Shown here: positions 1 through 61,378 of the stretch, in pieces
Layout of the letters: each line of letters starts with the position of its first letter
Position numbering within the stretch: the stretch's first letter is position 1
Origin: Raillietiella orientalis
Lineage: Eukaryota
Assembly (NCBI GenBank): GCA_036172245.1
Contig: JAYWIR010000044.1
Coordinates: 1,550,001 to 1,614,000, forward strand
Direction of reading: 5' to 3'
Length of the DNA: 64,000 nucleotides
The notes under the pieces: model-generated
What the model saw: the letters and a program-made list of their open reading frames with translations, nothing else
Database searches by the model: none
What the model was told of the DNA's origin: nothing
Program-made: the position numbers and the translations under genes

Positions 1-805
1 TGTATGGACAGTTCGCTGCTCCCCCTTGCTTGGAAACCAGCCGTGCTGCTTTTCGTTCACTGGGGTTTTCAGTGCAACGAGCGTTGGCATCGTGACTCCG
101 GGGGACTTGCGTCTGCGAACTGCGTTCTGTGCGGATCGACGGAGTCGATTCCGCACCTACTTCTGGACTGCGGTGTCCTACAAGGACTGTGGCGTAGGCT
201 GGCAACAGCACTATTGCATCCCGTGGACACCGCAAGAGACTTGCTGCGACGATTCTTCACGCGGAGCGGGCTTTCACTAAGCGCAAGGATTGCAACCATC
301 GGTTGCATACGCGCGATAGTTTCCGTCCGCCAGGCGTTGGTAATCAACGGACAGCACCAAGAGGTAATCAGCAAAGCATCCTTCTACATGGGAGCATCCG
401 CTAGATGGCCTCATTTGACAGAGGAGACAAAGAGGAATCTCGCCGCAATACACCGCCGGTTTACACACGCTCAGCAGCGGCCAACCCGGTGATCATTGAC
501 CTACCCTCCATAAACTATTTTTGTATTTTCTTTTTACATCCGCGTCCCCATAGGCTCCGGAACATTCTAGGTGCTCATCGTCTAAATCCCCGTGAGTACG
601 GAGCCTAACCAAAAACCCGTTACCCTTCCCTCCAGTTTTTGATTTTTGTTTGTTTCCCCTCATTCCTCCCACACTGCGAGCGGTTTGTTTACCAAGCCTG
701 CGTGCCGGTAATTTTTCTATGTTCTCTGTCGTTCTGTTGTTGAAGGACATTGTCCCTGAGCAGTTTATTATTATTAATAAACGCCCCGGCGTGACCGGGT
801 GATAA
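1..805 (+). mobile_element. 3' end of an L1/Tx1-like LINE (E0): ORF2 C-terminal zinc finger and 3' UTR
   Basis: ORF 4..492 carries CVLCGSTESIPHLLLDC. A T-rich UTR follows, then AATAAACGCCCCGGCGTGACCGGGTGA at 776-802. Near-identical to 59973-60777. Confidence 0.9.
776..802 (+). terminator. Conserved 3'-terminal signal AATAAA + CCCGG-loop-CCGGG hairpin; representative copy
   Basis: Present at 13 element 3' ends with a conserved stem and variable loop. The function is inferred. Confidence 0.7.
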
Positions 806-1361
806 ATTTCAATCTCCGTCTGCTAACAGGTGAGCCACAAACACAAGAGAACGCGATGAACGAGTTGTGCGCCGCCATGCGTGCGCGCAACTTGTTCGCG
901 GGTGAGAGGGGAATGGTCCGCAGCATCGACCACGTCTTCCTCGACGCTAACCTGTGTTCACGGGTCGGCAAACGGGGGAGGGTTGCGTCGACGTTGTCGG
1001 ACCATTCCCGGTTAATTTTCGAGATGTGGCCTCGAGACAAAGGACCACCGTCCAGGGATTGGCGTATGCCGGTGGACTGGACGCGACTCTCAGGTGCGAA
1101 GGAACGCCTTCGCGAATACCTGAGAAGCGTCACGCTCCGGAATCTCCATTGAAACCCGGGTGCGCCGGGACGTTTATTCTCTCGAATAAACCTATACAAT
1201 CTGTTACTGGACCAGTAGTCCAGCCACGCCCTGGAAAGATATAGCTTGCCGGGCTACCGGTGCGCAGACCGGCGCGGTCGACCTCGGCAGCAGAGGGGAG
1301 GGGGAACGAAACAAAAAGAAAACAAAAAATAAACAAAAATCAGGGAGGGAGCGGGAAGGGA

Positions 1362-4300
1362 TCACAGTCTGCTGGGAGGCTCCGTCATCCTCTGGAGGAT
1401 GCCGGCAAGCTGTTTCTGCGTGTGTGGTTCCAGATGGGGCCATCGCGTCGCCATCCTGAGGAAACGGGCAGCATACACGTTGGCATCCCTGTCGCTGGAT
1501 CCTCCCGTCGATTTGCTCCATGCCACGACGATCCCGCGTAGGCAGCACAGGGCTGCAAGCAAGGCCGCTGGAGGCAGGGCGTCACGGACGAAGAGGGGGC
1601 GCAAAGCGTCACTGGGGTTGCCTCCGGGGATCCCCACGGCTGCGGCAAAGCGTTCCCACAAGGGACGGAGGGCAACACAATCCACTAACAGGTGGGGGAG
1701 GTATTCCCTCTCCCCGCACCTGACACAATTAGGGTTGACAACCCCCGCGTCCAGTGGTTTTGGCGGGCGTTGCAAGGAAACCCCCAATGCAACACCATCA
1801 GTGCCGACTGTTGCCACTTTATGGGGAGGGTGCGCGAGTCCATAAGCACCATGGGACACTCGAGATGTTCCTCTGGAACATCCAGTAGCTCTCCCCAGCG
1901 CAACAGTCCATTTGGGGTGGTCCTCGGGGTCGCAGCGTTGGTGAGCTGACCCGTTCTCCAATCCCCGTTCTTCTTTGCCCTGCTGGCGATCTTGAAAGTA
2001 ACCTCCCATTGTGCCGCGACGTCGCTGCCCAGATGTTCCCGTAGGGTAGGCAGTACCGCAGCAAGGGAGGTTCTTTGTGCCCACGCTCTCCTTCGGGGAT
2101 TCTCGATGATTTCTCGGAGCGTGCGGCGGGCATGCGGCCCGAACAGAGCTATTCGCTCGTGTTGCGGGCTCTGCTCCTGAATCATCGCCCACGTGCGGAC
2201 GGTTTCCTGCAACCAGGCAGGGCCGTTCGCGGGGCGTACGAGGATCCGCGCCGAGTTGTTCTTCACGAGCTTGGCCGCCCTCCGAAGTTGAAGTCCGCAG
2301 TGGCAGATGGGGCTTCGGAGTGCAAAGTAGGACGAGAGTCCCGCATTGCCGGTGGCCCGCTCGACGAGGAGACGTGCAGGGAGGCACCGAGGGGTGCACC
2401 AGTTTTCTGCCATAAAGGCAACAACTCGGAACTGGAGCTGTAGCTCCAGCCGCTCCAACGTCAGGAGACCCAGAGCACCATCCCGACGAGGAGCGCACAA
2501 GTCCGAAAGACGGACTCGGGGCCTCCCTCTGCCCCAAAGGGCGATCCTCAGGAGGTCCTTCGTCCTCTTCTTTGACTTCGCTGAGGGGGGGCAAACAAAA
2601 AGCAAGGAGCGAAGGAGGGGGGCCGCAAACGCGTTCCACGCCGCGGCCCGTTCATGCAGGAAGAACCTGCCGTCCTGGAACGGGCCGATCGCCTCCTGAG
2701 CTTTCTGAAGGCAGCCGGACCACGCTTCCGCAGGGGAGTAATCCCCCAACGGCACACCAAGGTACTTGAAGTACCTCACCGTGGGGATCCTTAAACGGAC
2801 CCAGTCCTGCTGCCCTGCCCACGCCGCTCCGACTGGCATTACGGACGACTTCGCCCTGTTCACCGTCAGTCCTGTTCCACGACTCAGCAGGTCGAAGAAG
2901 TCCTCGACCGCCGAGGCCGGGGTGGACATAGGCAGCAGCAGCAGAAGGTCGTCCGCGTACGCCGAAACCGCAGGCGTACCGGGGCAATCGCACGGCAGGT
3001 GCGCAAGAGTCTCCCTGTACGCTCTCAGCACCAATTCGAAAAAGGCGCTAAAGAGCAGGGGGCTAAGGCTGTCTCCCTGCCGTATGCCGCGTCGCACCGG
3101 TACTCCGTGCACGGTTTGCTCGCTGAAAAGAACATTAATGAGCGCGTCGCGCCAGCTGGAGCGCAGGTAGGCCAACAAAGAGGCCGGGAAGCCCAAGCGT
3201 TCCAGAAGCTCCAAGAGGAGATTCTGGTCGACGCTGTCGAATGCTTTACGCAAGTCGACAGCGACCGCAAGGGCTCCCTTCCCCACCCGACCGTTCCGTC
3301 TCCCGCCAACGGACGCACCGGAATTCCGGCTGCTTAATAAGCCCCTTCCTTGTTGGAGCTCTAACCATGTGGAAGCGTGGAACAGTTTCGCCTCCATGCT
3401 CCGCCCGGGAACAGCATAAGTCTGTTCCGGGCTGATGAAGATGTTGGCAACCCGTCCCAGACGCTCTGCCCACATCTTGGCTATCAACTTGGCGTCCGCA
3501 TTCACTATTGTGATGGGACGCCAGTTGTTCATGCTCCTTAGGTCTCCTCCCTTCGGGAGGAGCCGAACCTTTGCTGAACGAAACGAGGTGGGAACGTCAC
3601 CTGTTACACGGATCAGCAAGGTGAGCTGATGTACCAGGGGAGTAAGCTGAGCCGCGAAAGTTTGGTAAAACTCCGCGGGCAGGCCGTCCTCCCCTGGAGC
3701 CTTCCGCCTCTTGAGCTTTCCGATGGCCGAGAGGATCTCGTCCATCGTGGAAGGCTCGTCGAGGCTTCTTTTCTCCTCCTCCCCGATCGCTGGAGCACCT
3801 TCCGGAAGCAGAAGTCGTGAGACGTCCCGCTCCGGAGGCGCCCTGGCGTACAGGGAGGAGTAAAATTTCCTGACTATCCCGCGTTTCTGAGCGGGAACCG
3901 AGTGCTCCCGGCCCTGGTCGTCCAGCAAGCTGGCCGACCCGGATTGCCAGGCTTGCCTCTCGGCTCCCGCTCGATACTCTGCTAACCTGCGCATGTCGGG
4001 GGTTCTTGCGTAACGTCGGGCCTGAAGATAGCACCTTTCGTTACGCGGCCCCTCCCCAAATCCCGCAGGTAGGCGATGCAGGGGGAACTGATCGCAGAAC
4101 TCCTGGACCGACCGCTTGAAGCGGTCCCAGTCCTGAAGTGTCTGCATCCTGAAGCTTCGAATAAACGCGCGGAGGTGCTCCGCCGCGTCGGGAAACTTCA
4201 GCCAGTCCCCTGGCAGACGCCACGCTGACGAGGGGGGGCCCTTGTCGCGCGGACGCACTTCGAACATGATCCGACCATGGTCCGACAGCTCGGATGGTAC

Positions 4301-4942
4301 CTTGCCGCGCCTGCCAACCCGAGAGCATAGGTGCTGATCAAGGTACACGTGATCGATGCTGCTTTCCATGGCCGTGTCCCCGGCCAACAAGTTGCGCGTT
4401 TTCATTTCTGCGCACAACTCGTTGACGCGGTCGTTCAGTGTATCCGGCGCACCTGAAAGCAGGCGCAGGTTGAAATCACCTGCGATCAGGTGCGCTTTGC
4501 AAACTCCTGCATCGGTCAGCCAATCGCGTCTCAGGGCAAGGTAGAATTCCCTTCTTGCCTTCGCCCTCAACGCGTTGTTTCCGCGAGGAGCGTATAGGTT
4601 GGTGAAGACCAGGTCGATAGAGTCGGACCAGCTGAGAGTCAGCTGACCGACGCGACCTGCGTCATCGAAGCGAACGTCCTTTATTGCGGTCTCGATGGCT
4701 GGCCGAAGCAGGAAGGCGACACCGCTTGATTTCGCGGTGCCGCAACGCCACAACAGCCGCCCACCCGAGATCCGTTCGATCTCCCGGGCTTGATCTGCGG
4801 AGATCAGGTGGATCACCTGCAGCAGCACCAGGTCGAAGGATGCCAGGGTGGCGGCCACGTCACGCCTCTTGCCGTCGTCGCTTAGCCCGTTCACGTTCCA
4901 ACAGGCGATCAGAAGACGACGGCGAGAGGCGATTCCCGGCAT
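1362..4942 (-). pseudogene. E1 ORF2: APE endonuclease, reverse transcriptase and zinc finger; nearly intact
   Basis: 1085-aa ORF with WNVNGL, GDFN, IDH, SDH, KAPGEDG, WRPIT, KAFD, RQGDSLSP, YADD and KYLG. A frameshift near 1740 moves CVRCGEREYLPHLLVDC into ORF 1362..2639. The endonuclease QE motif is mutated to QV. Confidence 0.93.
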
Positions 4943-6584
4943 TATGGCTGGGAAAGTGGCGTCGCGACACCTGCCGCGGGGCAGTGTCGGAAAGGTCCAT
5001 CGGTACGAGGACGGAGGCCTCTTCAGGCGCCTGGGGTACCTGTTCGGCCTCCATCCTCACCATCCCCTCCGTGTCCGAGCGTGGAATTCTCTCGGGCGAC
5101 GGATCCCGGGAGTTTCCCACGCTCATGGCACCCTCGCTACCGGAAGCCATCTCTTCCCCTTCGTCGGGGGAGACGATCTTCCGGGGCATTGTGGACTTTC
5201 GTCCTGCCTTTTTGCGGAGTGCCGCGGAGATGGATGCTGTGTTTCCGGCCTTCACCTCGGGGTCGGAAGTGGCCGACTCCTGAGGGGAAGCCGGACGCCT
5301 GACGGCCTTCTTGCCAGCCTTGGGGGCAACCGGCTGCAGCGAGGCAGCCAGCTCCTCCGCGGCGCGCTCGAAGGCGACGTCATCGAGCGTGGGCACGATG
5401 ACGGACGCCGCCGCCTCGCTTCCCTCCTTGTTGACTTTGTCAACGGAGGGTTGAGCAGGGGCAGCAGCGAGTTCTTTAGCGCCGCATCCGTCGATGGCGG
5501 GAATCCGCTCTACAACGACGCAGCAGCTTTTAATTTTTTCGCGGCGCAGGGCGGTTTCGCTCCGTTTCGCCACGTTCTTTCCCTTCTTATGGGAGTTTTT
5601 CTTGGGGTCGACCTTCTGCCACCCTGGCTCTTGACCCTCGCCCTCGACCTTTTTGGCGTTTTAAGCAGAAGTCTCGGGGCTGGCCTTCGCCTTGGTGGCG
5701 GAGGTGACCTCCTTAGCAGCATCACGAGCTGCCAGCTTCTTTCTCTTTTTTGCCGCGCGCTTTCTCGCGTTTTTCGCGGACACGACGCGGACTGTGTTTT
5801 GGGGGCACACCAGACGGGTGTGCCCCGCTTGTTTGCATTGCTGGCACTGCACGTTTGGACACCTCATTTTAAGGTGACCAAAGCTGCTGCAGCAGCCGCA
5901 AAACTTGGGTTTCCCCACGTACCACACGTCAACGGATTCACCGTTGACGGTAAGTTTGTGGGGAAACTCACATCCCTCGCGAACCGTCACTCGCGCTGCA
6001 CCCAGGCCGCCAAGCACCCCGTCGTAATCGACAAAAGGAGTAGGCTTTCCCCACAGCGCGTGGACTGTTGCAAACTTTTCTAATTCGTTCCGGACGGCCT
6101 CCTTCCTCATCCGGAACGTGATACCGGTCAGGTGAATGATCACCGACCGGTCTTCAGTAATGGGGAGAAGCCTCCGGCTGCCCATAATTACGGGGGTTCG
6201 CAGAAGTCTCTGCGCAAGAGTTGCCTCCTTGCAGATAACTTCCACAAATTGACCCCCGCTTCTGACGGACATAGCCAGAAGTTCCTCTTTTTGTACACCG
6301 AGAACGCGCATCGCCTGCGAAAAGGCGCGCGCGTTCTCGGGAGAATATAAACCGCCTACCTTATATAGAAGGGGTGGGTTATACCCCTCCTCCAGGTAAG
6401 CGCGCATTTCCGCCATAGCCGCTGGCGTAGGTGCCGCAGCCACGGCGTTCCAAGCCCTGGGTAGGGCCGGGGGCGCATCCATGCTGGCGGAAGCCTCCAC
6501 TGATGCGAGAGCCCCCACCTCCATCTCCTCCGGGGGCAATGAGGTCATCGACCCCGGATCCTCACCGGTGGTGGTATCAGGCAT
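4860..6584 (-). pseudogene. E1 ORF1 (gag-like nucleic-acid-binding protein, two CCHC knuckles) with one in-frame nonsense codon
   Basis: 5661..6584 has CGCCSSFGHLKMRC and CQQCKQAGHTRLVC. TAA at 5661-5663 is followed in the same frame by 4860..5573; the homolog 38417..39487 reads through this position. Confidence 0.88.
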
Positions 6585-6640
6585 TGCTGCCTAATCCTCC
6601 ACCCACACCACGCACAAGCACCAACGGAAATGAAACTCAG

Positions 6641-6666
6641 GAGCAACGAAAAGACACGTCCGCTCG
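6641..6666 (-). promoter_or_regulatory. Conserved 5'-terminal motif (candidate internal promoter); representative copy
   Basis: CGGACGTG-TCTTTTCGTT-GCTC. Equivalent motifs occur at seven other element 5' ends. Confidence 0.6.
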
Positions 6667-9600
6667 ACGCTCCGGAATCTCCAGGACTGGGACCTTTTTC
6701 AGGAATCGGTCTGCGAGTTCTGCGAGCATTTTCCCCTGGATCGCCTGCTTCCCGGATTTGGCTAGGGTGTTCGCAACCATCGAGCCTATTTACGGGTTCG
6801 TTGTTACGAGAGAACCCCTAATGTATGTCGCTTGGCCGAGTACCGCGCTGGGGCCGAACGCCAAGCCTGGCAAACCGGGTCGGCGAGCTTGCTGGACGAC
6901 CAGGGCCGGGAATGTTCGTCCCCGGCGTCGGTACGGCATCTCGTGCGGAGTTTTTATTCCTCCCTTTACGTCAGGGAGCCCCCGGATCGGAAAGCCTCTC
7001 GGCCCTTGCTTCCGGATGGCGCCCCGGCAATAGGGGAGGAGGAGATGGAAAGCCTCGACGAGCATTTTACCACCGGCGAAATTCTCGCCGGTATCCAAAG
7101 GCTCAAGAGGCGTAAAGCTCCAGGGGAAGACGGCTTGCCGGCGGAGTTCTTTCAGTGCTTCGCGGAAGAGCTGGCACCCCTGCTGCTTAAGTTGATCAGG
7201 CTGATCCGAGACGAAGGCGATGTTCCCGCCTCGTTTCGGTCAGCCAGAGTGAGGCTCCTTCCGAAAGGGGGAGACCTCAGGGATTTAAAGAACTGGCGTT
7301 CAATCACAATAGTGAATGCGGACACCAAGTTGCTAGGAAAGGTTTCAGCAGAGCATCTGGGACGGGTTGCCAACATCTTCATCAGCCCGGAACCGACATA
7401 TGCTGTTCCCGGGCGAAGCATGGAGGCGAACCTGTTCCACGCTTCCACCTGGCTAGAGCACCAACATGAAAGGAGCTTGGTGCGGACCTGGAATTCCGGT
7501 GCGTGCGCCGGCAAGGGGTTGGATGGTTGGGTGGGGGAGGGAGCCCTTGCGGTCGCAATCGACTTGCGAAAAGCATTCGATTATGTCGACCAGAATTTCC
7601 TTCTGGAGCTTCTGGAACGCTTGGGCTTCCCGGCCTCATTAGTGGCCTATCTGCGCTCTAGCTGGCGCGACGCGCTCATCAAGGTTACTTTTAGCGGGCA
7701 GACCGTGCACGGCGTGCCGGTGCGGCGTGGGATCCAAAAGGGATACAGCCTGAGTCTCTTGCTCTTCAGTACCTACTTTGAGTTGGTACTGAGACCGTAC
7801 AGGAGAACTCTGGCGCAGCTGCCGCACGACTGTGCCGGGTACGCCGGTCGTTTCAGCATACGCGGACGACCTTCTGCTGCTGCTCCCTATGTCCACCCCG
7901 GCTGCGGCCTTCGAGGAGTTCTCCGACCTTTTGCATCAAGGAACCGGACTTACGGTCAACAGGGCGAAGTCGTCAGTGATGCCAGTTGGTGCGGCGTGGG
8001 AAGGGCAGAAGGACTGGGTGCGTTTGGGGATCCTCACGATGAGGTACTCCAAGTACCTTGGTGCGCCGTTGGCATACTACTCCCCGGCGACAGCGTGGTC
8101 CGGCTGCCTCCAAAAAGTAGAGAAGGCGATCGGCCCGTTCAGAGGCGGTAGGTTTTTCCTGCCTGAACGGGCAGCGGTTTGGAACACGTTCGCGTCTCCT
8201 CTCCTCCGCCCTCTGCTTTTTGTTTGCTTCTCTACAGAGAGAATTAAAAAGCGGACAAAGGACCTCATCCCTATCGCCCTTTGGGGCAACGGGAGGGCCC
8301 GAGTCCGATTAAAGGACTTGTGCACTCGTCGTCGGGACGGTGGTCTGGGCCTGCTGACGCTGGAGCGGCTGGAGCTTGAGCTCCAGTTTCGCTTGTCGGC
8401 ACTCTTTCCAGAGTTGTGGTGCACCTGTTGGTGCGTCCCTGCACGTCTCCTTCTCCAGCAAGCCACCGGCAAGATGGGACTGATGTCGTTTCTTGCACTC
8501 CGTCGCCGCGTCAACCGATGCGGACTCCAGCTACGGTGGGTGGCTGCGCTGTATCGGAAAAACTTAGGATTGCTCACCTGTCGCCCTTTGAACGGTAGTG
8601 CCTGGTTTCAGGAAACCGTTCGAACGTGGGGACAGTTCGGCATGCAACGCTTTCAACAGTAACGAAAGTTTCTGTTTGGGGGTTACAGAAGTTGCACGCT
8701 CCGCGAGTTCCTGGAGGATCAAAAGAAGAGTGCGTGGGCAAGCAGAACCCCCCTTGCTGCTGCGCTGTCTTCCCTGATGGAGGATCTGGACAGCGATGTT
8801 TTGGCGAAGTGGGAGGTTACAGTAAAAATCTCCGGGAAGGAGAAGAAGATAGGAGAGTGGAATATGGTCCAGTTGACAGACACTGCGACCCCGAGTACGC
8901 CTCCCAATGTACTTCTGCGTTGAAGAGCGCTGCTCGATGTTCCCATTGAACATCTGAACTGGTTCCCGGTGCTCATGAACACTTCCGCCATCCTTTTAAA
9001 ATGGCAGGAGACGGCTCTCCTGTTGCAGCACTGGGGACTCATCTGCAACGCCCGCCGACACCACTGGACCTGGGGAGCGGTGGACCTTAATTGCGTCAGG
9101 TGTGGGGAACGGTAGTCCCTTTTCCACCTGCTAGTGGATTCTATTGCCCTTCGGCCACTTTGGTTTCGCTTTGCCGCGGCCATCGGATTCCCCTGCGGTA
9201 ACCCCAGGGACGCACTGAAAGCCCTCTTCGCTGCTGACGCCTTTCGGCCAGCGACCTCGTTAGCAGCTTCGTGCTGCCTACGCGGGATCGTCACCGCTTG
9301 GAGCAAGGCAACGGGAGGTCAACGCGACCAGGGTGCCATCTTGCCAGCCTCTTAGTTTCTGAAGTGGGCCTCCCAATGGCCATACCTGGATCCAGTAATA
9401 CAGAAGGAGCTTGCCGGCATCCTGCAAAGGATGCAACGGCCCCACCAGCAACTGTAATCCCTTCCCTCACCCTCCCAAGTTTTCTTTTCTTTTTTGTTTT
9501 GTTTTTTGTTTTTCCCCCTTACCCCTGCTTCCGTGGTGGACCGTACCGGTCTGCGAACCAATGACCCGGCAGGCTCTGTGTTTCTTCGTGCGTGGCTGGA

Positions 9601-9674
9601 GCAATGGTCCAGCCACTACACGTCTTTGTAAATGTTTGTTTTATAATAAACGCCCCGGAGAAATCCGGGTGAAA

Positions 9675-10052
9675 ATCGAACGCTTTACAGAGAGCGACGG
9701 CGACCGCTAAGGCTCCCTGCGTTCCTTCGTGCCTTGAACCCCGCCGCTTACCTTTGGCAGCGGCGATTTTAGCTGCCTGGCACTACTGCGCCACGCGCTG
9801 CTGCAAATCGAACCATTTTAAAGGAAAGAAGAGATTCGCGTCCATGGACCGCCCCGGAACAGCATACGTCTACTCCGGACTTATCAAGGACTCCGCGATT
9901 CTCCCCAGGCGCGCGACCCATAGCTTGGAGAACAACTTCACGTTTGAATCCACCAATGTGATCGGACGCCAGCAGATCACCGCCTTTCGGCAGTAGACTC
10001 ACCTTTGCTGACCGGAAAGAAACCGGAACATCGCCGGTCTCTTGCATCAGCG
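9675..10052 (-). pseudogene. RT fragment (LMQETGDV...LLPKGG...AVAVALCKAFD)
   Basis: ORF 9769..10047 and adjacent frames. It ends at the AFD codons where the H1 3' end abuts. Confidence 0.85.
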
Positions 10053-11679: not shown

Positions 11680-14600
11680 TCAGGAGGGAATTCCAGCTGG
11701 ATGGTCCCGGACGTTGTCCTGGATCCTCTTTAGGATGAATCGGTACGTCCAGGCGTGGATCTTCCCGCAGTTCCTGATGCCGATTTCCCTCTTCAAGAGC
11801 CCTTGTAGGATCTCCATCGGTGGTGCGGCTCTCCTGGCTTTCCTCATTTTCCACCACCACACAAGTATGGCGGTGATGAAGAGGGCGATGGTCGTCCTCA
11901 CCATGAGATTGTAACAGGGAACATTACCATCCCCATGAAACATCCCGGCGAGGATCTCCATAACGGACTTGTTGTAAAGCCCTATGATCCTTTTCAGGAT
12001 CAGCCAGTCATGCAGCAGTGTGGGACACGTCAAGACGTGAAGTCTCGTGTCGTCGTCTCCACATGCTGCGCAGTCTCGATCTTCTTGTCTTCCTGTGAAG
12101 TGCTGCAATCGGGAACCACTCTGGATTCCTCCGTGATAAAAGATCAGGAGGTCATCCTGGGTGCCCGGCGGAAGGTCACTCCTCCAGAGCGTCGTGCCGA
12201 TCGCTAACAGGTTGAACCGTTCATTCCCGTAGCGTTCGGTGGCTTCCTAGAGGGCACTGGTGTCACGGTCGTTTTCTTTGATAAGCCTTCGGAGGTTTGT
12301 TCTGGTTACCCTCGACCATGCGAAGTCGTTGTGGTTGAACCACACTTCGCGGGTCCTGTGGGTAAACCTTCCTAAGATCATCTCTGTATACCGAAGTATA
12401 CGAGTTTGATGTAGGTAACCTCCTCGCCTCCACTCCTGAATTTGCAGTAGGGTAACTCTGGGCAGCTGGTAGATCCAGCTTCTCGTGTCCGGCGGGACAG
12501 GAAGCATCCAAGGGATCACCAGGATGGACTCGTCCTGCCAGAGTTCCCTGCTTCGCGGCACGATGTTGATTTGGTGCTTTCGCACCAGTCGTTGCTTCCT
12601 CCTCCACGTCGGTTCGATTGTTATCCATTTCCCTACTTTGCCTAGCAGCGCAGTCATCAGGCCTTTCGAGTTGTTAAGCAACAACGCGTAGGCCCTGTGC
12701 GCCGCATGCGGCCAGTCATCCCAGTGAGTGGCAATGTCCAGGATGTTTCGCGTATCCATGATTTCCATGGAATGTGCAAGCGACTTCATCCCAGAACAGC
12801 TTTCTTCCCTGGGACGACACAGGGGTTTCAGTCTTACTCTTGGGCGATAGTGGCCCCAGAGTGTTTTTCTTTGAAGCTTGTCGAACTCCATAGTAGTGTC
12901 CTTGTTCATCCTCGCGAATTCCGCCCCGAAGAGCACTTTCGGAAGGAGTACTCCGTTCCATATGTTGGCCTTTCGCTTCATCTTAAGGTCCGTTCGGGTG
13001 TACTTGGCTGCTTTTTTGGCCGTTTTCCCCAGGATTTCCTCTCACAGCAGCATCGACGCAGAGTCGTCGCCGATGTAGACACCCAGGTACTTGTCCGTGT
13101 CCACCGTACGGAATCCACTACCCGTTAGAGTGGAGAGGTTAAGGATTCCGACGGGCAAAAGCTGGCTCTTCTGGGAATTGATTTTTAAGCCCAAGCCCTG
13201 TTCCATCAGGTCCACCACATCCAGAAACGCACGCTGATTTTTTTCTTCCTTGATGAAGAAGAGTAGATTATCGACGTATGCCAGATGGGTAAGACGCTGG
13301 CCATCGATGGTAATCCCGCTCAGTCGTCCGCTCTTCTCGATAAAGGACGACAACGCTTTTATATAGATGACGAACAGCATCGGACTTTGCGAGTCGCCCT
13401 GTCGGACTCCTCGTTCCATCTTGATTGCTGCCGTCTCCTGGCCGTTGATCTTGATCCGGCAGTACGGGTTCTGGAGTACCGCCCTCACGAAGTTGCTGAA
13501 GTGTTCCGGAAGCCCTAGCTTCTCCAGAACCTTCAGCAGCATCCCGTGGTCGATGGAGTCGAAAGCCTTCTCCATGTCAGTGAACACCAGCACCAGGTTC
13601 TCGCCGACGTATCGAGTGAGTCCAACAGTGGCCTGGGCACACTTGACATTGTCCGACATGTGTCGTCCTGGGACTGCACATGTCTGAACCGGAGAGATCA
13701 GCCTCGACATGACCTTGCCTAAGCGGTTGGACCAGATCTTCGCCAACCACTTGGCATCGGAATTTAACATCGAGATTGGCCTCCATTGGGCGATCTGGGT
13801 AGAGTCGCCTCCTTTCGGCAGCACTCTCATCCGTCTCACGTAGAAGGACTGAGATAGTCTGCCTTCTTCCCGGATGCAGAGGGTCAACTGGTGGAAGAAG
13901 CGCAGGTAGGCGTGAAGGTACCGCTAATAGTGCATGATGGGTACACTGTCAGGGCCCGCTGCCACGTCTTTGCGAAGTTGCCCAAACGCAGTCTTCACCT
14001 CTTCTTCGGAGAATTCCTCCTCCAGTCTGTTCCGCTGGAGATCGTCGGTCCTCTTCTCGAGGTAGCTCAGAAAGGCCTGTTGACTGGAGCGACACAGATG
14101 TTGTCGCCTGAAGTGTTTCGTGTAATGCCTGTGAAAGGCATCCACGATGTCCTCAGACGACTGTCGCTTTTGACCGTCGTACTGGATGCAGAAGATATCT
14201 GTTGCCAGATTTCTCTTCTCCAGCACGTCGACTTCCCCTTTGATGTTCTTGAAGACGTACCGACTCTTGTACTGATCGAAGTACTTTAAGAGTGAGCGAT
14301 CTTGGATGTTCTGCTCCAGGTACGCCTCCTGCCTCAAGCGGCTATCCCCGAACTGCATGTTTGCAAACAGGTGTATCCTGTGTTTCAGGCTGTCCCAGTC
14401 GGCGACTCTTCGGATTGTTGTTGCCTTCAGAATCGTCTCCAGGACAGCCTGATGTCCAGGATGGGTTTCTAACCAGGCGAGCATGCTGATGAGCGCCGCC
14501 CTGGTGCCTTGCCTCCGCCGAGGATTCCCCGTTCTTAGGGAAAACTGCACCAGGGGGTGATCGGACAGCGTAGTCATAGTGTCGCGAAACCTCTGGATGC

Positions 14601-15198
14601 GGTTCCCAAGTTCGGTGCTGTGCTGTACGTGATCGATCGGCTTGTGGCTTGCTGTTCGCCAGACCAGTCCGAACTCGTCGGATAGCCGTTGATACGCCGT
14701 CCTTTCTCTGGCGTCTTCGGAGTGAGTGATCTCATCCAATATGTTGAGATCGCCAGCAACAATCACGACGTCCTTGAAAGCAACCTTTTCACGAAGTGCT
14801 GCATGCAGCGCCTCCGCACAACGATGTTTTAGCCTGTGCGGCCCGTACACGTTCACCAGGATGAGGTGAACAGTAGCGGACCAGGCCAGTCGCACACCGA
14901 TGGTTCGTCCGGGTTGGGGACAGAACACTTCCAGAATAGTGGGGGCTAAGTGGTTCTTTATTAGCACCGCTACACCCTTGGTGTTCCGTTCTCCTTCGCT
15001 GACGAACATCTGCCCGTTGAATCGCCATTCCATTCGCTGGCTGATCTCGAGACCCATCCTGTGGGTCTCCTGCAGGCACACGATGTCTTGTTGTGCGATG
15101 GTCCGTACAATCCTTCTTCTTTTTCCCTGGTCGATTACACCGTTTACGTTTTAGGAGGCGATATTCAGCCTCCTGGCGTTCGATAGGGAAGAGGTCAT
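11680..15198 (-). pseudogene. E3 ORF2 (EN-RT-zinc finger), disrupted
   Basis: ATG at 15198 gives MTSSLSNARRLNIAS*NVNG, then LQETH, GDLN, IDH, SDH, WRPISML, KAFD, RQGD, YVDN (instead of YADD), KYLG and CAACGDDDTRLHVLTC. Confidence 0.88.
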
Positions 15199-37400: not shown

Positions 37401-40013
37401 CAAACGCAGCAGGCAAGAGGTTCATAGGGAACTCGTCGCAAAAATTCCGGACCGAGCGTTTGCAGCGGTACCGGTCCTGAAGCGTCTGCAAGTGAAACCT
37501 CGTATGAATCCGCGGAGATGCTCCGCGGCTTCCGGAATTTCCAGCCAGTGCCCCGCTAAGCGCCACGCAGATGAAGGCGAACCCCTTTCGCGTGGGCGCA
37601 CCTCGAGTACGATCCGGTCATGGTCCGACAGTTCCGACGGTAACCTGCCGCGCCTGCCCACGCGTGAGCATAGGTGCTGGTCAAGAAACACGTGATCTAT
37701 GCTGTCGGTCATTTCCGGATCTCCCTCGAACAAGTTGCGCGTGTGCATCTCTGCCCTCAGCTCGTTCACGCGATCCCGAAGTGTGTCGGACGCACCTGAC
37801 AGCAGGCGCAGGTTAAAGTCACCTGCGATTAGGTGCGCTTTGCGCACTCCCGCTTCGTCCAGATATTCGCGCCTCAGGGTAAGGGAATAATCTCTCCTCG
37901 CCTTTGCCCTTAGCGCGTCGCTGCCGCTTGGGGCGTACACGTTGGTAATGACCAGATCGATGGATTCGGACCACCTAATGGTCAACTGCCCAACGCGACC
38001 GGCACTATCGAACCGTACGCCCTTTGCCGCAGCCTCGACAGCTGGACGAAGCAGGAACGCGACACCGCAAGATTTGACGGTGCCGCAACGGCACAGTATC
38101 CGTCCACCAGAGATACGATCGATCTCCGTTGCTTGGTCAGCGGAGATCACGTGGATCTCTTCCAGCAGCAGCAGGTGGAACGATGCCAGGGTGGACGCCA
38201 CGTCTCGTGTCCTGCCGTCGACGCATAGCCTGCTGAGATTCCAAAAAGCAGTTCGCAGACGGCGGCAAGAGGCGATTCCCGGCTTTAATGCTGGGAACGT
38301 GGCGTTGCAGCACTTGTCAAGGGACAGCTGAAAGGGACGAGTAAGGGGACCGCGGCCATCTCAGGCACTTGAAGCATTTAGCGTGCAAACTCTACCCTTT
38401 CCCTCCCACCGGGGTCTCAGCGTGATGTTACCTCTCGAGGAGAGTTCCCGGATTTCCCTACTTTATTAGCACGCTTCCTTCCCTCAATTATCTCTCCCTT
38501 TTCCACGGACGGGATAATTTTGCGGGTAGCCTTCTTCGTGCGATTGGCCTTCGGGCGGGAGGCCGCGATGCCGCAGTCTGTGTTTTCCTCCTCTGCGTCA
38601 CAGTTCGGAATCTCCGACTTCCTGATCGAGGTCGGGCGCCTTAAGGCCTTTTTCGCGAATTTAAGGGGACGCTGCAAGGACGCAGCGAGCTCCTCCGCCT
38701 CTCGCTCACAGGCGACGTCTTCGAGCATGCGTTCCACGACGAACGCCACCGCCGGATAGATAGACTCCGGTATTAATTTGACGGAGGGCTGAAAGTCTGC
38801 AGCGACAAGTGCAATTTTGCCGTTCTGTTCGACCGCAGGAATGCGCTTGATGACGACAGAGCAGCGTTTCATCTTTTCGCGACGCTGCAAATTTTCGATG
38901 CGTTTAGCGACATTTTTTTTTGGTTCCTTGATGCTTTTCTGCCTCTTTGATTTTACTACCTGCCATCCAGGTTCCTGGCCGGTCTCGTCGACCTTCTCCC
39001 AATTTTCCAAGATCTCGGTGCTGACCTTTACTCCGGGCACGATAGTTGTTTTTCGAACGGCGGCTCTCTCTCGGGCTGCCTGAACTCGTCTTTTTCTCGC
39101 CGCGCGCCTCTTCGCATTCCGTGCGGACGCGACACGAACTTCATTTTGCGGGCACACTGGAAGAGTGTTCCCTGGTTGCTTGCATTGCTTGCACTGCAAA
39201 TGGGGGCACCTTTTTTTCAGGTGACCTGAAGTGCAGCAATGCCCGCAGAAATGCGGCTTACCAACATAACAGATGTCAACGGCTTCGCCGTTGACCTCCA
39301 GCTCGTTTGCTAGGGAGTAACCCTCGCGGACCGTGATGAGCGCGGAAGTCATACCGCAATTCAGGAGATCGTACACCCAAAACGGAGTTCGTTTTTTCCA
39401 CAACGCGTAGACAGTTCCAAATTTAACTAGTTCCTTCCGGACAGCCTCTTCGGCCATCCTGAAGGTGTTTCGAAGGAGGTGGATCACGATAGATCTATCA
39501 TCCGTGATGGGGAGGAGCCGGCGATTCCCTTAAGGAACAGGTGTACAAAGCAGACGCTGGCCCAGACTTGCTTCTTTTCAAATCACCTTAGGGTACTGTC
39601 CACCACTTCCGATGGTCATCGCCAAGAGCTCATCCTGGGGTACTTTGAGGGAGTGCATCGCTTTCGAGAAAGCGCGTGCACTCTCAAAGGAGTAAAGGTT
39701 GCCTACCTTGTAGAGTAGAGGGTGATTGTACCCCTCCTCCAGGTAGGCTTCTAACTCAGACCCTGCAGCTTGCGTTGTTGCCATAGCACAGAACTCCAGC
39801 TTCTTTCTAGCGAGGGAGTCGCTTCTGTGTGGGCGGTTGCCCCCACATCCATTGATTCAGGAGGCGACATAGACGTCGCCCCCTCCTCAACATTAATGGT
39901 GGTCCCAGGCATTGCTGCCTAGCCACCATTGAATCAACTGTCACACTAAGAAAAAAGAGAAAAAAAATAAAACCACAAACGCTCAAGAGCGAAACAAAAA
40001 CCCGTCCGCTGTC
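34474..40013 (-). mobile_element. Full-length degenerate LINE (E9), related to E1
   Basis: 5' motif at 39987-40009. ORF1 starts at ATG 39912 (knuckles in 38417..39487). EN in 37422..38201, YADD in 36270..36560, zinc finger in 34722..35078. Terminal hairpin at 34479-34505; flanked by GCTC/GCTC. Confidence 0.9.
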
Positions 40014-54950: not shown

Positions 54951-56873
54951 ATGTCGACCCAACTTGAAAATCCTGAAGTTGGAGGAACAGCATCCGGATC
55001 TGCAATCGCGGAACCGACGGCCGCCTCCACTTCCTCTTTCTCGCCAATAAAGAGGAGTTTTGCTGACGTTGCTGCCACAGCAGCCGTCAAAGGGAAGCCA
55101 CTCGACGAGTCGGAGTTGCGGGCATACGTAGCCGAAGGCTATAGACCTGCTCTCCGATATAAGGTGAGTGGTTTTCTTTCTGCGCGCGACGGGAATCAGT
55201 TCAACGATGAACTGACCCGTGTTGGCGTGCGGAAGGAGGACCTTCTCGCCATTATGCCCGTAAAAGACATGGGCTATTTCAACGTGCGTTGCAAAGACGC
55301 TACACTTGTGCAACGCTTGCTGCGCACCCCGCTGTCGATCCGTGGCCAGAAGGTCTTCCCGGCCGCCATGGACGACTCATTTGTGGCAAAGATTTTCCAC
55401 ATCGAGTCGGAAATCTCCGATACTGATATTCGGAACGCGTCCGCGAAATTCGCCACGGTCCATGCGCTGTGGAGGGTGCGTAGCAACCTCAAGGACTTCC
55501 CGTCCATACACAGCGGAGTCGCTGAAGTCCGGCTTACAATGCCGGACCGCCGTCTGCTGCCCACCAAACTACAGGTGAAAGACACGGTCGTTCACCTGTG
55601 GTTCGTGGACAAAGTAAGAACGTGCGAGCAATGCGGGAAGGAGGGGCATTTTTTGGATAAATGCCCCTCCGGAAAATGCCGTTATTGCAAACTATCCGAA
55701 CACCAATTGAAAAATTGCCCGGATCTTTTGCGAAAATAGGCAGCCGCGGAGCTCCATCTGAGAAAACAAAGCGCGGATAAAAAGAAAAAATCTGCGAAAA
55801 ACCTGGAGACCCCACGGCAGAAATTCTGAAGAAACGCGAGGCGGAATGTCGCCCCAAAGCAGCAGGAAACCTCGCAAGCGAAGCCCTGCGCGCCCCCTCT
55901 CGCGGCAGGCGAGCCGCAAAAGAAAGGGTACGGGGAATCCGGGGCAATGGTAAATCCCCCTAGGCGCAATAGCTGTCTTTCCCAAGCACGCCCGGCTCTC
56001 TCGGAGTTCGAGCAACCGGCGGGGACGCCAATGGACAACGGCGGTAAGGGCAATTCCAGTACCGTCAGATCCATTCCTTCACCTCCTGCAGTGGCTGAGA
56101 AGCCCAAATCGGGTAAGAAGGGTTGTGCCGTGTCGACTTCGAAAGTCGGCAAAAAAAAATCCGCGTCGCGATCCAACACCGCGAAAGCGGAGAAAAATCT
56201 CACGCCGTCGCAGTCGGAGAAAAAGCTTTCGACTGGCGCGGATGCCATGCCAACGAAGGGATTAAAAGCCCTTCCGAAGGCAGCGTCCATGACGAGCGTG
56301 CCGGAGCCATCGAAACTGCTCCCGTTTAAAGACGCGGAGGGCTTCAAAGATGGCAATGGAACACAATCTCCATTTACGGCGCAGCGCGAAGTGAGGAACC
56401 GTAATGAAGTAAAGAAGACTTCAGCAAAGGTCCCTCGTGCAACTGCGCGTGAGCACGCTGAAAACGCGCGCGCCGGGAAAGCAGCCGTCACCAAAAGCGA
56501 TGCTCTGGAGACGGAAAAAGACAACAGGACAGCTGTCAATCCAGCAGAACCTGTCACTACTTCGCGGAAGGCCGAAACCCGTTCAACCATGCGCCGGTCG
56601 GTCTCCGAAATGGATGCCGTTCCGATCACCGAGACGAGGACAACTCGTTCGAAAGCGTGTGCGCACCGTTCAAAAGTAAGCAGCCAGACAACGCTAGCCG
56701 CGAAGCCACGCGAAGTCTCCACGAATCCCGACGGGGTTAAGCCTGACGTGGAGGCATTACATGCATGCAGCACGACGGAGGACGGTGGCGACCGTCCCCT
56801 CCAGCCAGTCGTGCTGCTCGCCGTCTGCTCGCCGGATAAAGCGAGCAAAAAGCCGCCACCTTCCCAGCAGTAA
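54951..56873 (+). pseudogene. E16 ORF1 with one in-frame stop at 55737-55739
   Basis: CEQCGKEGHFLDKC and CRYCKLSEHQLKNC. 55947..56873 continues in the same frame. Confidence 0.85.
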
Positions 56874-59800
56874 TGCGGGGAATCGCGTCTTCTCGTCGTC
56901 TGTCCGTAACGTGTTGGAACGTGAACGGACTACAGAACGACGAGAAGAGGCGATTAGTAGCCAACGTCCTGCGCCCCTTCGACCTCACGCTGCTGCAGGA
57001 GATTCACGTAATCTCCGACGAGCAGGCAGCCGAAATCGCGGAGCGCGCAGGCGGAACGCTACATTGGCGGTGCGGCGGCGCACACACGTGCGGCGTCGCG
57101 TTCCTCATAAGAGTAAAAATGGCGGAAGCGGTGCGTAGTGTTCGTTTCGATGACGAAGGACGGATAGGCCAGCTTGTCATCAAGTGGTCCGAGTCCATCG
57201 ATCTCGTCGTTACGTACGTCTACGCGCCGAGTGGTTTTCGCTACCTCGAAGAAAGAGCAGCTTTCTTTGGTGAGGTGCAGAGCCACTGGCTAAAAAACTC
57301 CGGCTTCCAAGTGGCGCACCTCGTCGCTGGGGACTTCAACGTCCGCCTGCTCTTCGACGACTGGAGCCGCCCGAGAAAGCGCGCGCTGCCCATCGAGATG
57401 TGCGCGTCCGTGCACGCCGCCAACTTGATGGTCAGCGAACCTGGAATGGAAAGATCGCTCGATCACGTTTTGCTCGATGAAAACCTGCATTCGCGTGTGA
57501 GTAGGAGAGGAAGATTGTTGACTGAGCTTTCTGACCACTACAGCATGGAGTTTGAGATCCTTCCGCCAGGCAGGGGGCCTCCGTTGCAAAGCTGGAGGAT
57601 GCAGGCGGATTGGCTTAGCGAATCAGAGGCTGCAGAGCATCCACGTGGATCCCCCCGAGGCTTTGCCATTCAAGAACTTTCGGACTGGGACGATCTCAAA
57701 AGATCTGTCCGCGAGTTCTGCTGCCAATTCCCCTTGCACCAGCTTCCACGCGGTTTCGGAGAGGGCGTGGCCAACGGTAGAGACTTTCTGCAGGCCCGCA
57801 CGTTTTCGAGACGCGCGGATGTCGGGCGTCTCGCAGAGTACAAGGCGAGGGCCGAGCGCCAGGTCTGGCAGTCCGGAGCAGCATGCCTGTTGGACGACAA
57901 GGGCCAGGAATGTTCCGCCCCAGCCGAAGTACGCCGCATTGTGAGACGCTACTTCTCCTCGCTCTACGCCGAATTTCCGACGGAGGATATTCTTTCTGAG
58001 ATACTCCTTTCTCAGGATGCTCGTGTTGTCGGCGAGGAGGAACGCGAACGTCTAAACGAGCCCTTCACGGCGGATGAATTTTCGTCCGCCATCGCTGGGC
58101 TGAAGAGACGAAAGGCGCCAGGCGAGAATGGGCTCCCTGTAGAGTTTTATCAGTGCTTTGCAGTGGAGCTCATTCCCTTGATGCTGAAACTCGCGACGCT
58201 GATGAGTGAATCCGGGAATGTCCCGGATTCCTTCCGCTCAGCGGAGGTGCGTCTCCTGCCGAAAGGCGGAGACTTGCGCCAACTTAACAACTGGCGCCCG
58301 ATCAGCTTGGTGAACTCTGACGTCAAGTTGTTTTCCAAGCTGTGGTTCGCGCGGTTAAGAAGTATCGCGGAATCTGTAATGAGCCCGGAACAAACCTGCG
58401 CGGTTCCGGGACGATCCATGGAGGCGAACATCCTTTTCGCGCGTACATGGATGCAGCTGGAGGAAGTTGTGGCTCAGCAAAGCCAGGCTGCTGCGAAAGT
58501 CACTGATGCAGGCAAAAAGAACAAGCGCCGACGGCAGGAGGGAACGCCAGGTGCCTTGGCGGTCGCGGTCGATCTCCACAAGGCGCTCGACTGCGTAAAC
58601 CAGAAGCTGCTTTTGGAGCATATGGAACGCCTTGGGTTCCCGGCGGAACTCCTGCTGTATTTCCGCGCGTGCTGGCGCCACGCACTAACCTGCATCACTT
58701 TTAGCGGCTGCCGCGTGTATGGTATTCCCGTTCGTAGGGGTATCCGACAGGGCGAGAGCTTAAGCCCGTTGCTCTTCAGCATCTTCTTTGAGTTGGTGCT
58801 AAGAGCATACAGGCTGACGCTGTCTCACTTGCCAAGCTCCTGCCCGGGAACGCCTGCCGTGGCCGCCTACGCTGATGACCTGCTTCTTCTGCTCCCCATG
58901 TCCACCCCGGCGTCCAGTGTCGAGGATTTCTTCGAGCTGATTCGTCGGACAGCGGGCGTGAGCGTGAACAGAGAGAAGAGCGTGGTCGTTCCTGTGGGTA
59001 CGTCGTGGGATGGGCAGTCCGACTGGATCCGCCTGGGGATTCCCACGGGCAGGTACTTTAAGTACCTTGGCGTTCCGTTGGGCGCTTTCAACGCAGCCGA
59101 AGAGTGGGCGGACTGTGTTCAGAAAGCAGAGTTGGCCATCAGGCCGTTCTTTAACGGCAAGTTTACCTTGCAGGAACGGGCGACTATTTGGAACACTTTT
59201 GTGGCCCCCCTCCTCCGTCCCCTGTTTTGTGTTTTGGACCCCCCCTATGCGGAAAACAGCGGGCTAAACGCCTGCTCAGGAACGCTCTTTGGGGTATGGC
59301 GAGATCCAGGATCCGCCTTAAAGATTTGATAGCTCCGCGTCGGGATTCTGGTTTGGGTATCTTGACAATGGAGCGAATCGGACTGCAGGTGGAGTTCTGA
59401 CTGCTGGCACTGCGTGCCCAGCTATGGACATCCCCCTGTGTGTACCAACCCGCAATTTCCTGCGGAGATGCGCCGGCAGCGGAGGATTTCTCTCGCTTTT
59501 GCCGGGCACTCAATACAGGAAGCTGGGTTTCGGGTTAGCACTGCGGCAGTTGACCGCACTTCTGGAAGCTCACTCGTGAATCTGCTGCCGCTTCATGAAC
59601 TTTTAAGATTGGCGGCAAGAGTCTGTCTAATTCTGGGTGGCTTTTCAAGAAATACGCCCTGAAGGTCTTTGCCTTCTGCTCTAATTTTTGCCACGATCCT
59701 TGGAAGAAGTGCTGCAGGACAAGGTGAAGTTTTGTACCCTGGCTGAGACGCCTCTTGCCGCAGCGCTGTCTGGCCTCATGGCAAGAAACGATAGTTGCCA

Positions 59801-60464: not shown

Positions 60465-61378
60465 TCATTGCCCTACCCTCCATAAACTAATTTTGTATTC
60501 TCTTATTACACCCGCGTCCCCATAGGCTCCGGAACATATTAGGTGCTCATCGTTTAAATCCCCGTAAGTACGGAGCCTAACCAAAAACCCGTTACCCTTC
60601 CCTCCAGTTTTTGATTTTTGTTTGTTTCCCCTCATTCCCCCCACGCTGCGAGCGGTTTGTTTACCAGACCTGCGTGCCGGTAATTTTTCTATGTTCTCTG
60701 TCGTACTGTTGGTTAAGGACATTGTCCCTGACCAGTTTATTATTATTAATAAACGCCCCGGCGTGACCGGGTTCTAAATTTTAATCTCCGTCTGCTAACA
60801 GGTGAGCCAGAAACACAAGAGAACGCGATTAACGAGTTGTGCGCCACCATGCGTGCGCGCAACTTCTTCGAGGGTGAGAGGGGAATGGTCCGAGCATTGA
60901 CAACGTCTTCCTCGAGGCTGACCTGTGTTCACGGGTCGGCAAACGGGGGCAGATTGCCTCCACGCTGTCAGACCATTCCCGGCTAATTTTCGGGATGCCG
61001 CCTCGCGACAAGGGACCGCCATCCAGGCACTGGCGACTCCCCGAGGACTAAACGCGACTCTCAGTTGAAAAGGTACACCTTCGCGAATACCTGAGAAGCG
61101 TCACGCTCCGGAATCTCCAGGACTAAGACGTTTTTAAGGAATCGGTCCGCGAATTCTGCGAGCAGTTTCCCCTGGATCGCCTGCCCCCCGGATTTGGCGA
61201 GGGTGCTCGCAACCATCGAGCCTATTTACAGGCTCGTATTTACGAGAGAACCCCTAATGTCCATCGCTTGTCCAAGTACCGCTCTGGGGCCGAACGCGAA
61301 GCCTGTTAATCCGGGTCGGCCAGCTTCCTGGACGACCAGGGCCGGGAATGTTCGTCCCCGTCGTCGGTACGGCATCTC

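Follow-up and report, generated by a model that had tools for sequence, protein, structure and literature searches.

A shortened GDFN-to-IDH interval in the predicted endonuclease of a nested LINE family

The window analysed here, a single stretch of DNA of 64,000 nucleotides, is a nest of LINEs; the ORF2 of these retrotransposons opens with an APE-type (EEP-fold) endonuclease (EN). In this endonuclease the interval between the GDFN and IDH motifs is unusually short, and the shortening is an old, maintained deletion and not decay. An ancestor common to the E1 family and its divergent relative E3 lost about 16-20 residues, and otherwise the fold was retained, catalytic residues included. In other LINE and AP endonucleases the corresponding stretch makes up the D-x-W-R turn, strand betaB6, where a Thr/Ser is conserved, and the betaB6-betaB5 hairpin that reaches into the DNA minor groove. 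The shortened enzyme stayed in use, as shown by purifying selection during deep divergence and by insertion with target-site duplications (TSDs). It would make the nick itself but add little to target choice, since the DNA cleft has lost one of its walls. The position of the nick may then be set by another determinant, such as another part of the ORF2 protein, the ORF1 protein, the RNA, or chromatin in the element cluster; what is visible is that sister copies receive insertions at a small number of recurring positions. To this explanation as a whole we assign a probability of about two in three.

The short interval and the predicted structure

The main features are collected in Table 1. The earlier note on this DNA had counted 37 aa between GDFN and IDH in E1 and 35 aa in E3, and had called other copies similarly short; its coordinates and counts hold, and the interval measures 35-39 aa in 9/9 window copies that span it (tblastn, counted from the alignments). 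The tblastn search gave 11 HSPs. The interval is covered in nine copies, with a pair of HSPs for one of these, and two HSPs end before it. In human L1-EN the same interval is 56 aa long, in line with the earlier note, by the D145/N147 and S202/I204 numbering in PMC1950540 and by alignment with 1vyb. The claim that the hairpin segment is absent from both families is borne out, with one correction: E3 lacks the (F/Y)T(W/F) strand and retains the W-R of D-x-W-R within GLVWR.

Table 1. Features of the LINE nest, in coordinates of the window
Feature	Position	Strand	Remarks and basis
E1, LINE copy of full length	1149..6666	minus	both junctions read; 5' end CGAGCGGACG, 3' end CCCGGCGCACCCGGGTTTCAA, without poly(A)
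E1 target-site duplication, 3'-side copy	1132..1148		ACGCTCCGGAATCTCCA; exact 17-mer search
E1 target-site duplication, 5'-side copy	6667..6683		exact 17-mer search
Paralogous empty site	61103..61119	plus	single 17-mer with the E1 flanks joined; within sister copy 60778-64000
E1 ORF2, endonuclease + reverse transcriptase	1685..4942	minus	1085 aa; truncated by frameshift near aa 1067
E1 endonuclease domain	4238..4942	minus	aa 1-235; Pfam, alignment, structure model
E1 candidate ORF1	5661..6584	minus	307 aa; two CCHC knuckles near C-terminus; sequence read directly
E1 codon 43	4814..4816	minus	GTG, Val at catalytic Glu position (LLQVIH); Val in E1 only
E1 GDFN	4469-4480	minus
E1 37-aa interval	4358..4468	minus	LRLLSGAP...DTAMESS; without D-x-W-R turn, strand betaB6 and hairpin; alignments and model
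E1 IDH	4349-4357	minus
E1 SDH	4277-4285	minus
E3, divergent sister family	12721..15195	minus	28% aa identity; 3 stops; GDLN-to-IDH interval 35 aa
Endonuclease of copy c56873	56873..57583	plus	no stop; catalytic Glu kept (LQEIH); interval 39 aa
Endonuclease of copy c38285	37566..38285	minus	no stop; Glu kept (LEEIH); interval 37 aa

For comparison, 87 complete endonuclease domains were aligned, namely E1 and 86 database proteins drawn from the best 150 of 570 hits, after 75 incomplete proteins had been removed from the 162 that were HMM-positive. Among these best 150 of 570 hits, the distance from the Asn of DxN to the Asp of xID is 38 residues in E1 and 42-90 (median 60) in the other 81 of the 82 aligned domains with all markers, a difference beyond chance; the T/S column of (F/Y)-(T/S)-(W/F), corresponding to T192 of L1-EN, holds T or S in 86/87 domains and is empty in E1 only; D-x-W-R has its D in 82/87 and its R in 77/87; and E1 is the sole sequence that lacks both the turn and the strand. 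To our knowledge, the hairpin is present also in more distant LINE clades, outside this comparison set.

Searches for further members of the family gave little. The 14 loci from a metagenome scan with the endonuclease alignment are distant (24-35% identity over a partial domain), include no family member, and were left out of the comparison. With the same alignment, a word-indexed search of 128-420-aa proteins found nothing at E <= 1e-6. Among sequencing runs, no RNA run was listed as containing the sequence, and one DNA run contains a fraction of 0.35 of its words. The close relative P0002, from the whole-ORF2 search, is 69% identical and covers the RT part only, and P0017, from the representative search, is a 106-aa N-terminal piece. 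Because both stop short of the interval, the gap is seen in the window copies alone.

The AlphaFold model of the E1 endonuclease (pLDDT 85.7, pTM 0.86) has human L1-EN as its top match (Foldseek E 2.5e-16, TM 0.74-0.76) and superposes on 1vyb_A with a VIA Z of 25.0 and an rmsd of 2.4 Å over 212/236 residues. Between helix 168-179 and the IDH strand 197-202 it has no more than a strand of 3 residues and a single turn of helix, whereas the control relative P0035, modelled with the same 24 sequences, forms a helix (180-184) and then two strands (193-195 and 198-200) ahead of its RID strand. Thus the structure prediction called for in the earlier note gave no hairpin or strand pair equivalent to that of L1-EN in the E1 model, both strands being present in the control. 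Confidence in the model is lowest beside the gap, where the mean pLDDT falls to 51 (residues 161-170) and 64 (residues 171-180). The description of the enzyme as minimal proved too loose: it falls short of L1-EN by only about 10 residues (model 6-230, chain 4-238), because another segment is longer. The loop following DxN, from its Asn to D-[RK], has 12 residues in E1 and 6-7 in 82/84 relatives.

The catalytic residues N, E, Y, D-x-N, D and D-H are kept by the family as a whole, as had been claimed, with E1 itself as an exception at the Glu. Alignment A2 shows no variation at N16, Y117, D156, D197, D221 and H222, and at least 90% of its rows are filled at N158 and in the Glu column. In the window, five of the seven copies that cover this column have Glu; E1 has Val and copy c54407 has Asp.

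Mobility, ancestry and recurrent insertion sites

E1 lies inverted within a sister copy on the plus strand (806-1148 and 6684-9675). The 17-mer of its TSD has three exact occurrences in the window, at 1132, 6667 and 61103, and because the last of these is an empty site, E1 must have entered after the host copies had separated. The perfect 17-bp duplication and the empty site bear out the contention that copies moved, with E1 the only window copy to show a clean, verified TSD; the insert at 54872-60777 is flanked by 8 bp, of which 7/8 match. The E1 ORF2 matches PF03372 at aa 15-222 (E 8.1e-12; 45.8 bits, cut-off 24.5) and PF00078 at aa 463-731 (E 1.7e-22), thus placing the endonuclease N-terminal of the reverse transcriptase in one ORF, and the candidate ORF1 has no Pfam match at E <= 0.1. 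At the C-terminus of ORF2 a C-x2-C...H-x4-C pattern is visible; zf-RVT (PF13966), the zinc-binding domain with which ORF2 ends in the L1/Tx1 group of LINEs, matches the sister copy at 60778-64000 weakly, below its cut-off of 27.5 (E 0.0015, 19.6 bits), and is found in 4/8 endonuclease-bearing hits of the whole-ORF2 search. Since E1 combines Val at the catalytic Glu with a frameshifted C-terminus, it either moved in trans or was damaged after insertion. No copy with a whole ORF2 was found within the window.

The deletion was said to be lineage-wide, and the tree agrees. Against 22 database ORF2 proteins, E3 and seven copies of the E1 family form one clade with SH-aLRT 100, with the caution that two long branches, those of E3 and the E1 family, meet in it; the path between E3 and E1 in the same tree is about 2.7 changes per site. 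The dN/dS of the endonuclease is 0.23, 0.25 and 0.26 in 3/3 pairs; within the 37-aa interval alone, which offers few sites, it is high, about 0.3-0.86. The age and maintenance of the deletion follow from its sharing by E3 in a single clade with E1, from these low whole-domain ratios, and from the TSD and empty site of E1.

ORF2-like matches occupy 36,890 of the 64,000 bases, and most insertions are into sister copies: eight of ten 3' flanks map clearly on the E1 sequence, and one more does so weakly. Site C, in the RT KAFD codons, was used three times at the identical nucleotide, with element ends 76-87% and flanks 61-63% identical; site B was used twice within about 6-9 nt (elements 76% identical, flanks 57%); at site A, elements are 94% and flanks 90% identical over 250 nt. 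Because insertions recur at the same positions in sister copies, three of them at one nucleotide, insertion is targeted and not random. These sites do not reveal the agent of the targeting, and the different recognition mode put forward in the earlier note was a conjecture that goes beyond them. The nine distinct junctions, when lined up, have no common motif at the nick and only a weak purine bias before it, so sequence-specific cutting gains no support. All eleven 3' ends that were read close with 4-6 bases such as GAAAA, GATAA or TTCAA, and the poly(A) or simple-repeat tail, a trait of the L1/Tx1 group, is absent from them. A 5-bp stem-loop precedes the GAAAA-like bases; it folds no better than shuffled sequences in 4/5 copies and, since the stem is invariant, has no support from covariation.

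Alternative explanations

That the short interval reflects decay in dead copies, or an artefact of alignment, is hardly credible. Most copies do carry stops or frameshifts, but the gap is common to all nine copies, across subfamilies 45-73% identical, and recurs in E3 at 28%; moreover, the frame is kept, the xID Asp and SDH are separated by the usual 23 residues, and three alignment methods agree. Another alternative accepts the short endonuclease as real and treats the recurrent junctions as one composite unit spread by segmental duplication, which would make them uninformative on targeting. The close identities of element and flank at site A fit such a history, as does the resemblance of the host copies beginning at 806 and 60778 to duplicates. 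At sites B and C, however, the elements (76-87%) are far more alike than their flanks (57-63%), the flanks of two site C junctions give no blastn alignment at all, and the empty site dates the entry of E1 after the separation of its hosts; we consider duplication a rather unlikely source of the recurrence.

Two further explanations concern the enzyme itself. The role of the hairpin may have been taken over within the endonuclease, with the longer post-DxN loop or a new turn, TAME (190-193), reaching the groove, so that the enzyme still picks its target. This loop is located where R155 of L1-EN contacts DNA downstream of the cut, and the mutation R155A reduces L1-EN nicking to 12% (PMC8565326); the three insertions at one nucleotide of site C would also fit an enzyme with a specificity of its own. 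We nevertheless think such compensation unlikely, as the window copies show poor conservation of this loop (D-R occurs in E1 and c38285 only), which is also the lowest-confidence part of the model, and as the nick sites have no common sequence. It is very unlikely that the endonuclease is a crippled passenger, the copies using breaks or intermediates of replication within a fragile repeat cluster as entry points, or being moved by another element's enzymes. Such a state would suit the near abolition of L1-EN activity by engineered loop deletions (PMC1950540), the recent insertion of E1 despite its missing catalytic Glu, and the want of an intact ORF2 in the window. It does not suit the low dN/dS of the domain or the retention of catalytic residues over lineages so far apart, and the 17-bp TSD and the reuse of one nucleotide fit staggered enzymatic nicks, unlike random breaks. 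We therefore prefer an ancestral deletion of the hairpin in an enzyme still in use, with targeting probably placed elsewhere.

Comparison with known systems

Human L1-EN (PDB 1vyb, 7n8s, 8sp7) is the closest structure, with Z 25.0, rmsd 2.2-2.4 Å and 24% identity. The two share the EEP fold, the order N, E, Y, D-N, D, D-H, and the position N-terminal in ORF2 before the RT; they differ in that the interval of L1-EN includes T192 and the hairpin 193-202, whereas E1 has neither strand nor hairpin. In L1-EN the hairpin enters the minor groove and is one wall of the cleft holding the cut strand (PMC8565326), and three crystal-structure papers present it as the part by which LINE endonucleases read their target. 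The loop deletion L3G of L1-EN has little activity and changed nicking (Repanas et al. 2007, PMC1950540). Like the window family, L3G and the delta-loop form of TRAS1-EN (PMC1919474) lack the hairpin loop; according to both papers these man-made proteins keep betaB6 and have little activity with altered nicking, whereas the window family is natural, lacks betaB6 too, and is maintained by selection. A limited search of open-access text found no description of a natural LINE endonuclease without the hairpin.

A lineage that has long been without the hairpin and yet spreads shows that a LINE can do without it under some circumstances, and makes the window endonuclease a natural scaffold for asking what else aims a LINE. 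If the isolated enzyme proved unspecific, the recurring sites would point to a separate targeting factor. This bears on site-specific retrotransposons, on centromere- or cluster-forming LINEs, and on the retargeting of LINE machinery. Whether we have here a LINE lineage naturally lacking both the minor-groove hairpin and the edge strand, with nucleotide-precise self-targeting and target choice moved off the endonuclease, in short a "dumb nickase plus separate targeting" among APE-type LINEs, is doubtful, and we put it forward only tentatively.

Zepp elements have a poly(A) tail, whereas the window copies end in a stem-loop and GAAAA-like bases. In nesting they are alike: by the description in PMC8226300, PMC3446292 and PMC11005252, the Zepp/ZeppL L1-type LINEs of green algae form nested G+C-rich clusters of tens of kb, as here. 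Finally, the site-specific APE-type LINEs R1Bm, TRAS1 and Tx1L repeatedly insert at one nucleotide of a target present in many copies, as the window family does; in R1Bm and TRAS1 the hairpin aids specific cleavage (PMC1919474), whereas the window family has no hairpin and its target is its own family.

The short interval and the predicted structure

In E1, a full-length minus-strand LINE copy that spans 6666 to 1149, the motif positions give 37 aa between GDFN and IDH, as the earlier note had quoted, and the region 4280-4480 that it named thus extends from GDFN through SDH. Counted on tblastn alignments, this interval is 35-39 aa in all nine window copies covering it (among 11 endonuclease [EN] HSPs, nine copies span the interval, one as two HSPs, and the other two HSPs stop short of it). 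In human L1-EN it is 56 aa (N147 to I204, from the numbering in PMC1950540 and our alignment), in line with the length of about 56 aa given in the earlier note. The shortness reported for both families, E1 and its divergent sister E3 (15195-12721; only 28% identical, three stops), holds as well, and in E1 it lies outside the range of relatives.

A whole-ORF2 database search gave 15 relatives, and D-x-(W/F)-R ... (Y/F)-T/S-(F/W/H) is carried by all eight that were read with an EN domain. A profile search of 1.84 billion representatives, built on three ENs from the window, produced 570 hits with E <= 1e-3, the sole one under 1e-30 being a 106-aa fragment. The HMM of our EN alignment, A2, matched 162 of 166 collected proteins; 87 were complete enough for alignment and 75 were dropped as partial. 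In this set, where the profile hits are the best 150 of 570, the D of D-x-W-R is present in 82 of the 87 ENs and the R in 77, followed by an aromatic residue in 70 and by T or S in 86; the single empty cell of the T/S column is E1. Among the 82 domains with all marker residues (profile hits again the best 150 of 570), the distance from the DxN Asn to the xID Asp is 38 residues in E1 versus 42-90 in the others (median 60); the 42-residue relative, P0038, lacks the helix and keeps the strand. In E1 the normal 23 residues separate the xID Asp from SDH, and therefore the short interval is not made up downstream. E3 has L-V-W-R and then just six residues before IDH, so its deletion lies past the W-R turn. 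Thus the proposed loss of the whole D-x-(W/Y)-R...(Y/F)T(F/W) segment from both families stands for E1 in the 87-sequence alignment and in part for E3, which keeps W-R and has no (F/Y)T(W/F) strand.

The AlphaFold2 model of E1 EN, built from a 24-sequence alignment, has pLDDT 85.7 and pTM 0.86, with the lowest confidence at residues 161-180. Foldseek ranks entries for human L1-EN highest (8sp7, E 2.5e-16; 1vyb, TM 0.74-0.76), and VIA-align to 1vyb_A gives Z 25.0 and rmsd 2.4 A over 212 of 236 residues (model 6-230, chain 4-238). As a control, the segment-keeping relative P0035 was folded from the same sequences (pLDDT 91.7). It has the helix and short strand of E1, then a W-R helix (180-184) and two further strands (193-195 and 198-200) ahead of the RID strand; all three extra elements map into the E1 gap when secondary-structure strings are placed on the alignment, a comparison at the level of strings and alignment columns. 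An equivalent hairpin in a structure model had been named in advance as evidence against the loss; the predicted E1 structure has none where the control has strands, and this objection therefore falls away.

Positions of features in the window and in the E1 EN model
Feature	Position	Strand or orientation	Remark
E1 ORF2, 1085 aa	1685-4942	minus	ORF reading
Pfam Exo_endo_phos in E1 ORF2	aa 15-222		E 8.1e-12
Pfam RVT_1 in E1 ORF2	aa 463-731		E 1.7e-22
GDFN of E1	4469-4480	minus	motif position
IDH of E1	4349-4357	minus	motif position
SDH of E1	4277-4285	minus	motif position
Candidate ORF1, 307 aa, two CCHC knuckles	5661-6584	minus	5' of ORF2
E1 TSD, perfect 17-bp ACGCTCCGGAATCTCCA	1132-1148 and 6667-6683		exact match both sides
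3' ends	1149, 805, 9675, 21722, 24226, 28873, 34475, 43196-43201, 43523-43529, 46733, 49497, 60777
Site C	9675/9676, 28873/28872, 24226/24225	inserts inverted	within codons of RT motif ...KAFD of sister copies
Site B	1149 and 34475	inserts inverted	near ORF2 aa 262
Site A	805 and 60777	inserts oriented as host	within GDFN codons
DxN strand of E1 model	149-156		then low-confidence loop
Helix of E1 model	168-179
3-residue strand of E1 model	182-184
Single helical turn of E1 model	190-193
IDH strand of E1 model	197-202

State, age and selection of the copies

The entire window forms a cluster of nested LINEs: copies turn up all through it in a tblastn search with ORF2, 36,890 of 64,000 bases are ORF2-like matches, and the rest is largely assignable to ORF1 and UTR parts. 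The long ORF of E1, with its Exo_endo_phos and RVT_1 domains, is the ORF2 of a non-LTR retrotransposon whose EN is of the APE type. The candidate ORF1 has no Pfam match, and the spacer between the two ORFs (4943-5660, minus strand; ~718 bases) is unusually long. E1 is the best-preserved copy and is not intact, since Val occupies the catalytic Glu position (codon 43, 4814-4816, minus strand; LLQVIH versus LQEIH or LQETH in the family) and a frameshift near aa 1067 (about 1685-1760, minus strand) removes the C-terminal CCHC region. This region is readable in frame in the copy at 60778-64000, where zf-RVT scores E 0.0015, under the Pfam cut-off; no whole ORF2 was found among the copies within the window. 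The catalytic motifs described earlier as retained are indeed kept across the family (window copies and A2), the Glu of E1 itself excepted. Asp replacing the catalytic Glu in one copy (LQDIH, 54407-54871) and PNH where other copies show IDH (17807-18520) look like decay of individual copies.

A maximum-likelihood tree of EN+RT, in which eight copies from the window were set among 22 ORF2 proteins from the database (977 columns, LG+G4, quick search), groups E3 with seven E1-family copies at SH-aLRT 100, with an E3-E1 path of ~2.7 changes per site; according to a tool warning, E3 and the E1 family are long branches that meet. A single deletion in their common ancestor is the most parsimonious interpretation. 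Among the three ENs free of stops dN/dS is 0.23, 0.25, and 0.26, which is purifying selection even without discounting neutral post-insertion decay. The 37-aa interval taken by itself gives higher values (about 0.3-0.86), over few sites.

Insertion sites and 3' ends

Target-site duplications, already claimed in the earlier note, are verified for E1. Its 17-mer occurs a third time, in single copy inside a sister copy at 61103-61119, where it joins sequences matching both E1 flanks; this is a paralogous empty site, which together with the perfect duplication identifies E1 as a true insertion.

All 11 3' ends read carry a AATAAACG-like sequence, with a 5-bp stem CCCGG/CCGGG, a loop, a T, and 4-6 final bases such as GAAAA, GATAA, or TTCAA; poly(A) is absent from all 11. 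The stem never varies among copies and the loop does (4-6 nt); the predicted fold is not better than shuffles in four of five copies. This end may be a 3' recognition element.

Eight of ten mapped 3' flanks are clear E1-family matches and one more is weak, and insertions recur at fixed positions within sister copies. At site C, three insertions share one identical nucleotide. Their inserted ends (76-87% identity) are far more alike than the flanks (61-63%), and the flanks of two junctions are not alignable by blastn; these therefore look like separate, site-specific events. Site B holds E1 plus an older element, about 6-9 nt apart (76% identity against 57%). Site A was used twice at an identical nucleotide, and its identities (94-95% against 88-90%) are close enough that the pair is possibly one event, duplicated later. 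No nick-site motif could be derived from the nine distinct junctions lined up.

Mechanism and comparison with known systems

The hairpin segment is gone, the fold and the catalytic set remain, and the domain was under selection. In L1-EN, as described in PMC8565326, the 193-202 hairpin puts Pro197/His198 into the minor groove and forms, with the alphaB1-betaB3 loop, a clamp on the cut strand. The engineered loop deletion L3G of L1-EN (PMC1950540) had little activity and a changed nicking pattern, and lost the preference for supercoiled DNA. In a less likely rival reading, a longer loop after DxN might replace the hairpin in the window EN, having 12 residues in E1 versus 6-7 in 82 of 84 relatives; however, this loop is variable within the window family and poorly modelled in the E1 structure. 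In the favoured reading the EN probably still makes the first nick. With one wall of the DNA cleft missing, the enzyme is probably looser on DNA than L1-EN, and site choice would then come from a determinant outside the EN.

A limited literature search turned up no account of a LINE EN that naturally lacks the hairpin. The earlier note's observation is confirmed, and its interpretation is partly supported, the different recognition mode standing as a proposal. The finding would be of more interest if the isolated enzyme turned out to be active and unspecific. The window EN is related to L1-type APE endonucleases and would work like them. It lacks two features taken in the literature as general among LINE ENs, the hairpin (PMC1919474) and the conserved Thr anchor (PMC1950540). 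Finally, the cluster resembles the published descriptions of nested Zepp and Zepp-like LINEs in green algae (PMC8226300, PMC3446292, PMC11005252); its nesting and its G+C content of 54-60% are reminiscent of the Zepp-type clusters reported at green-algal centromeres.
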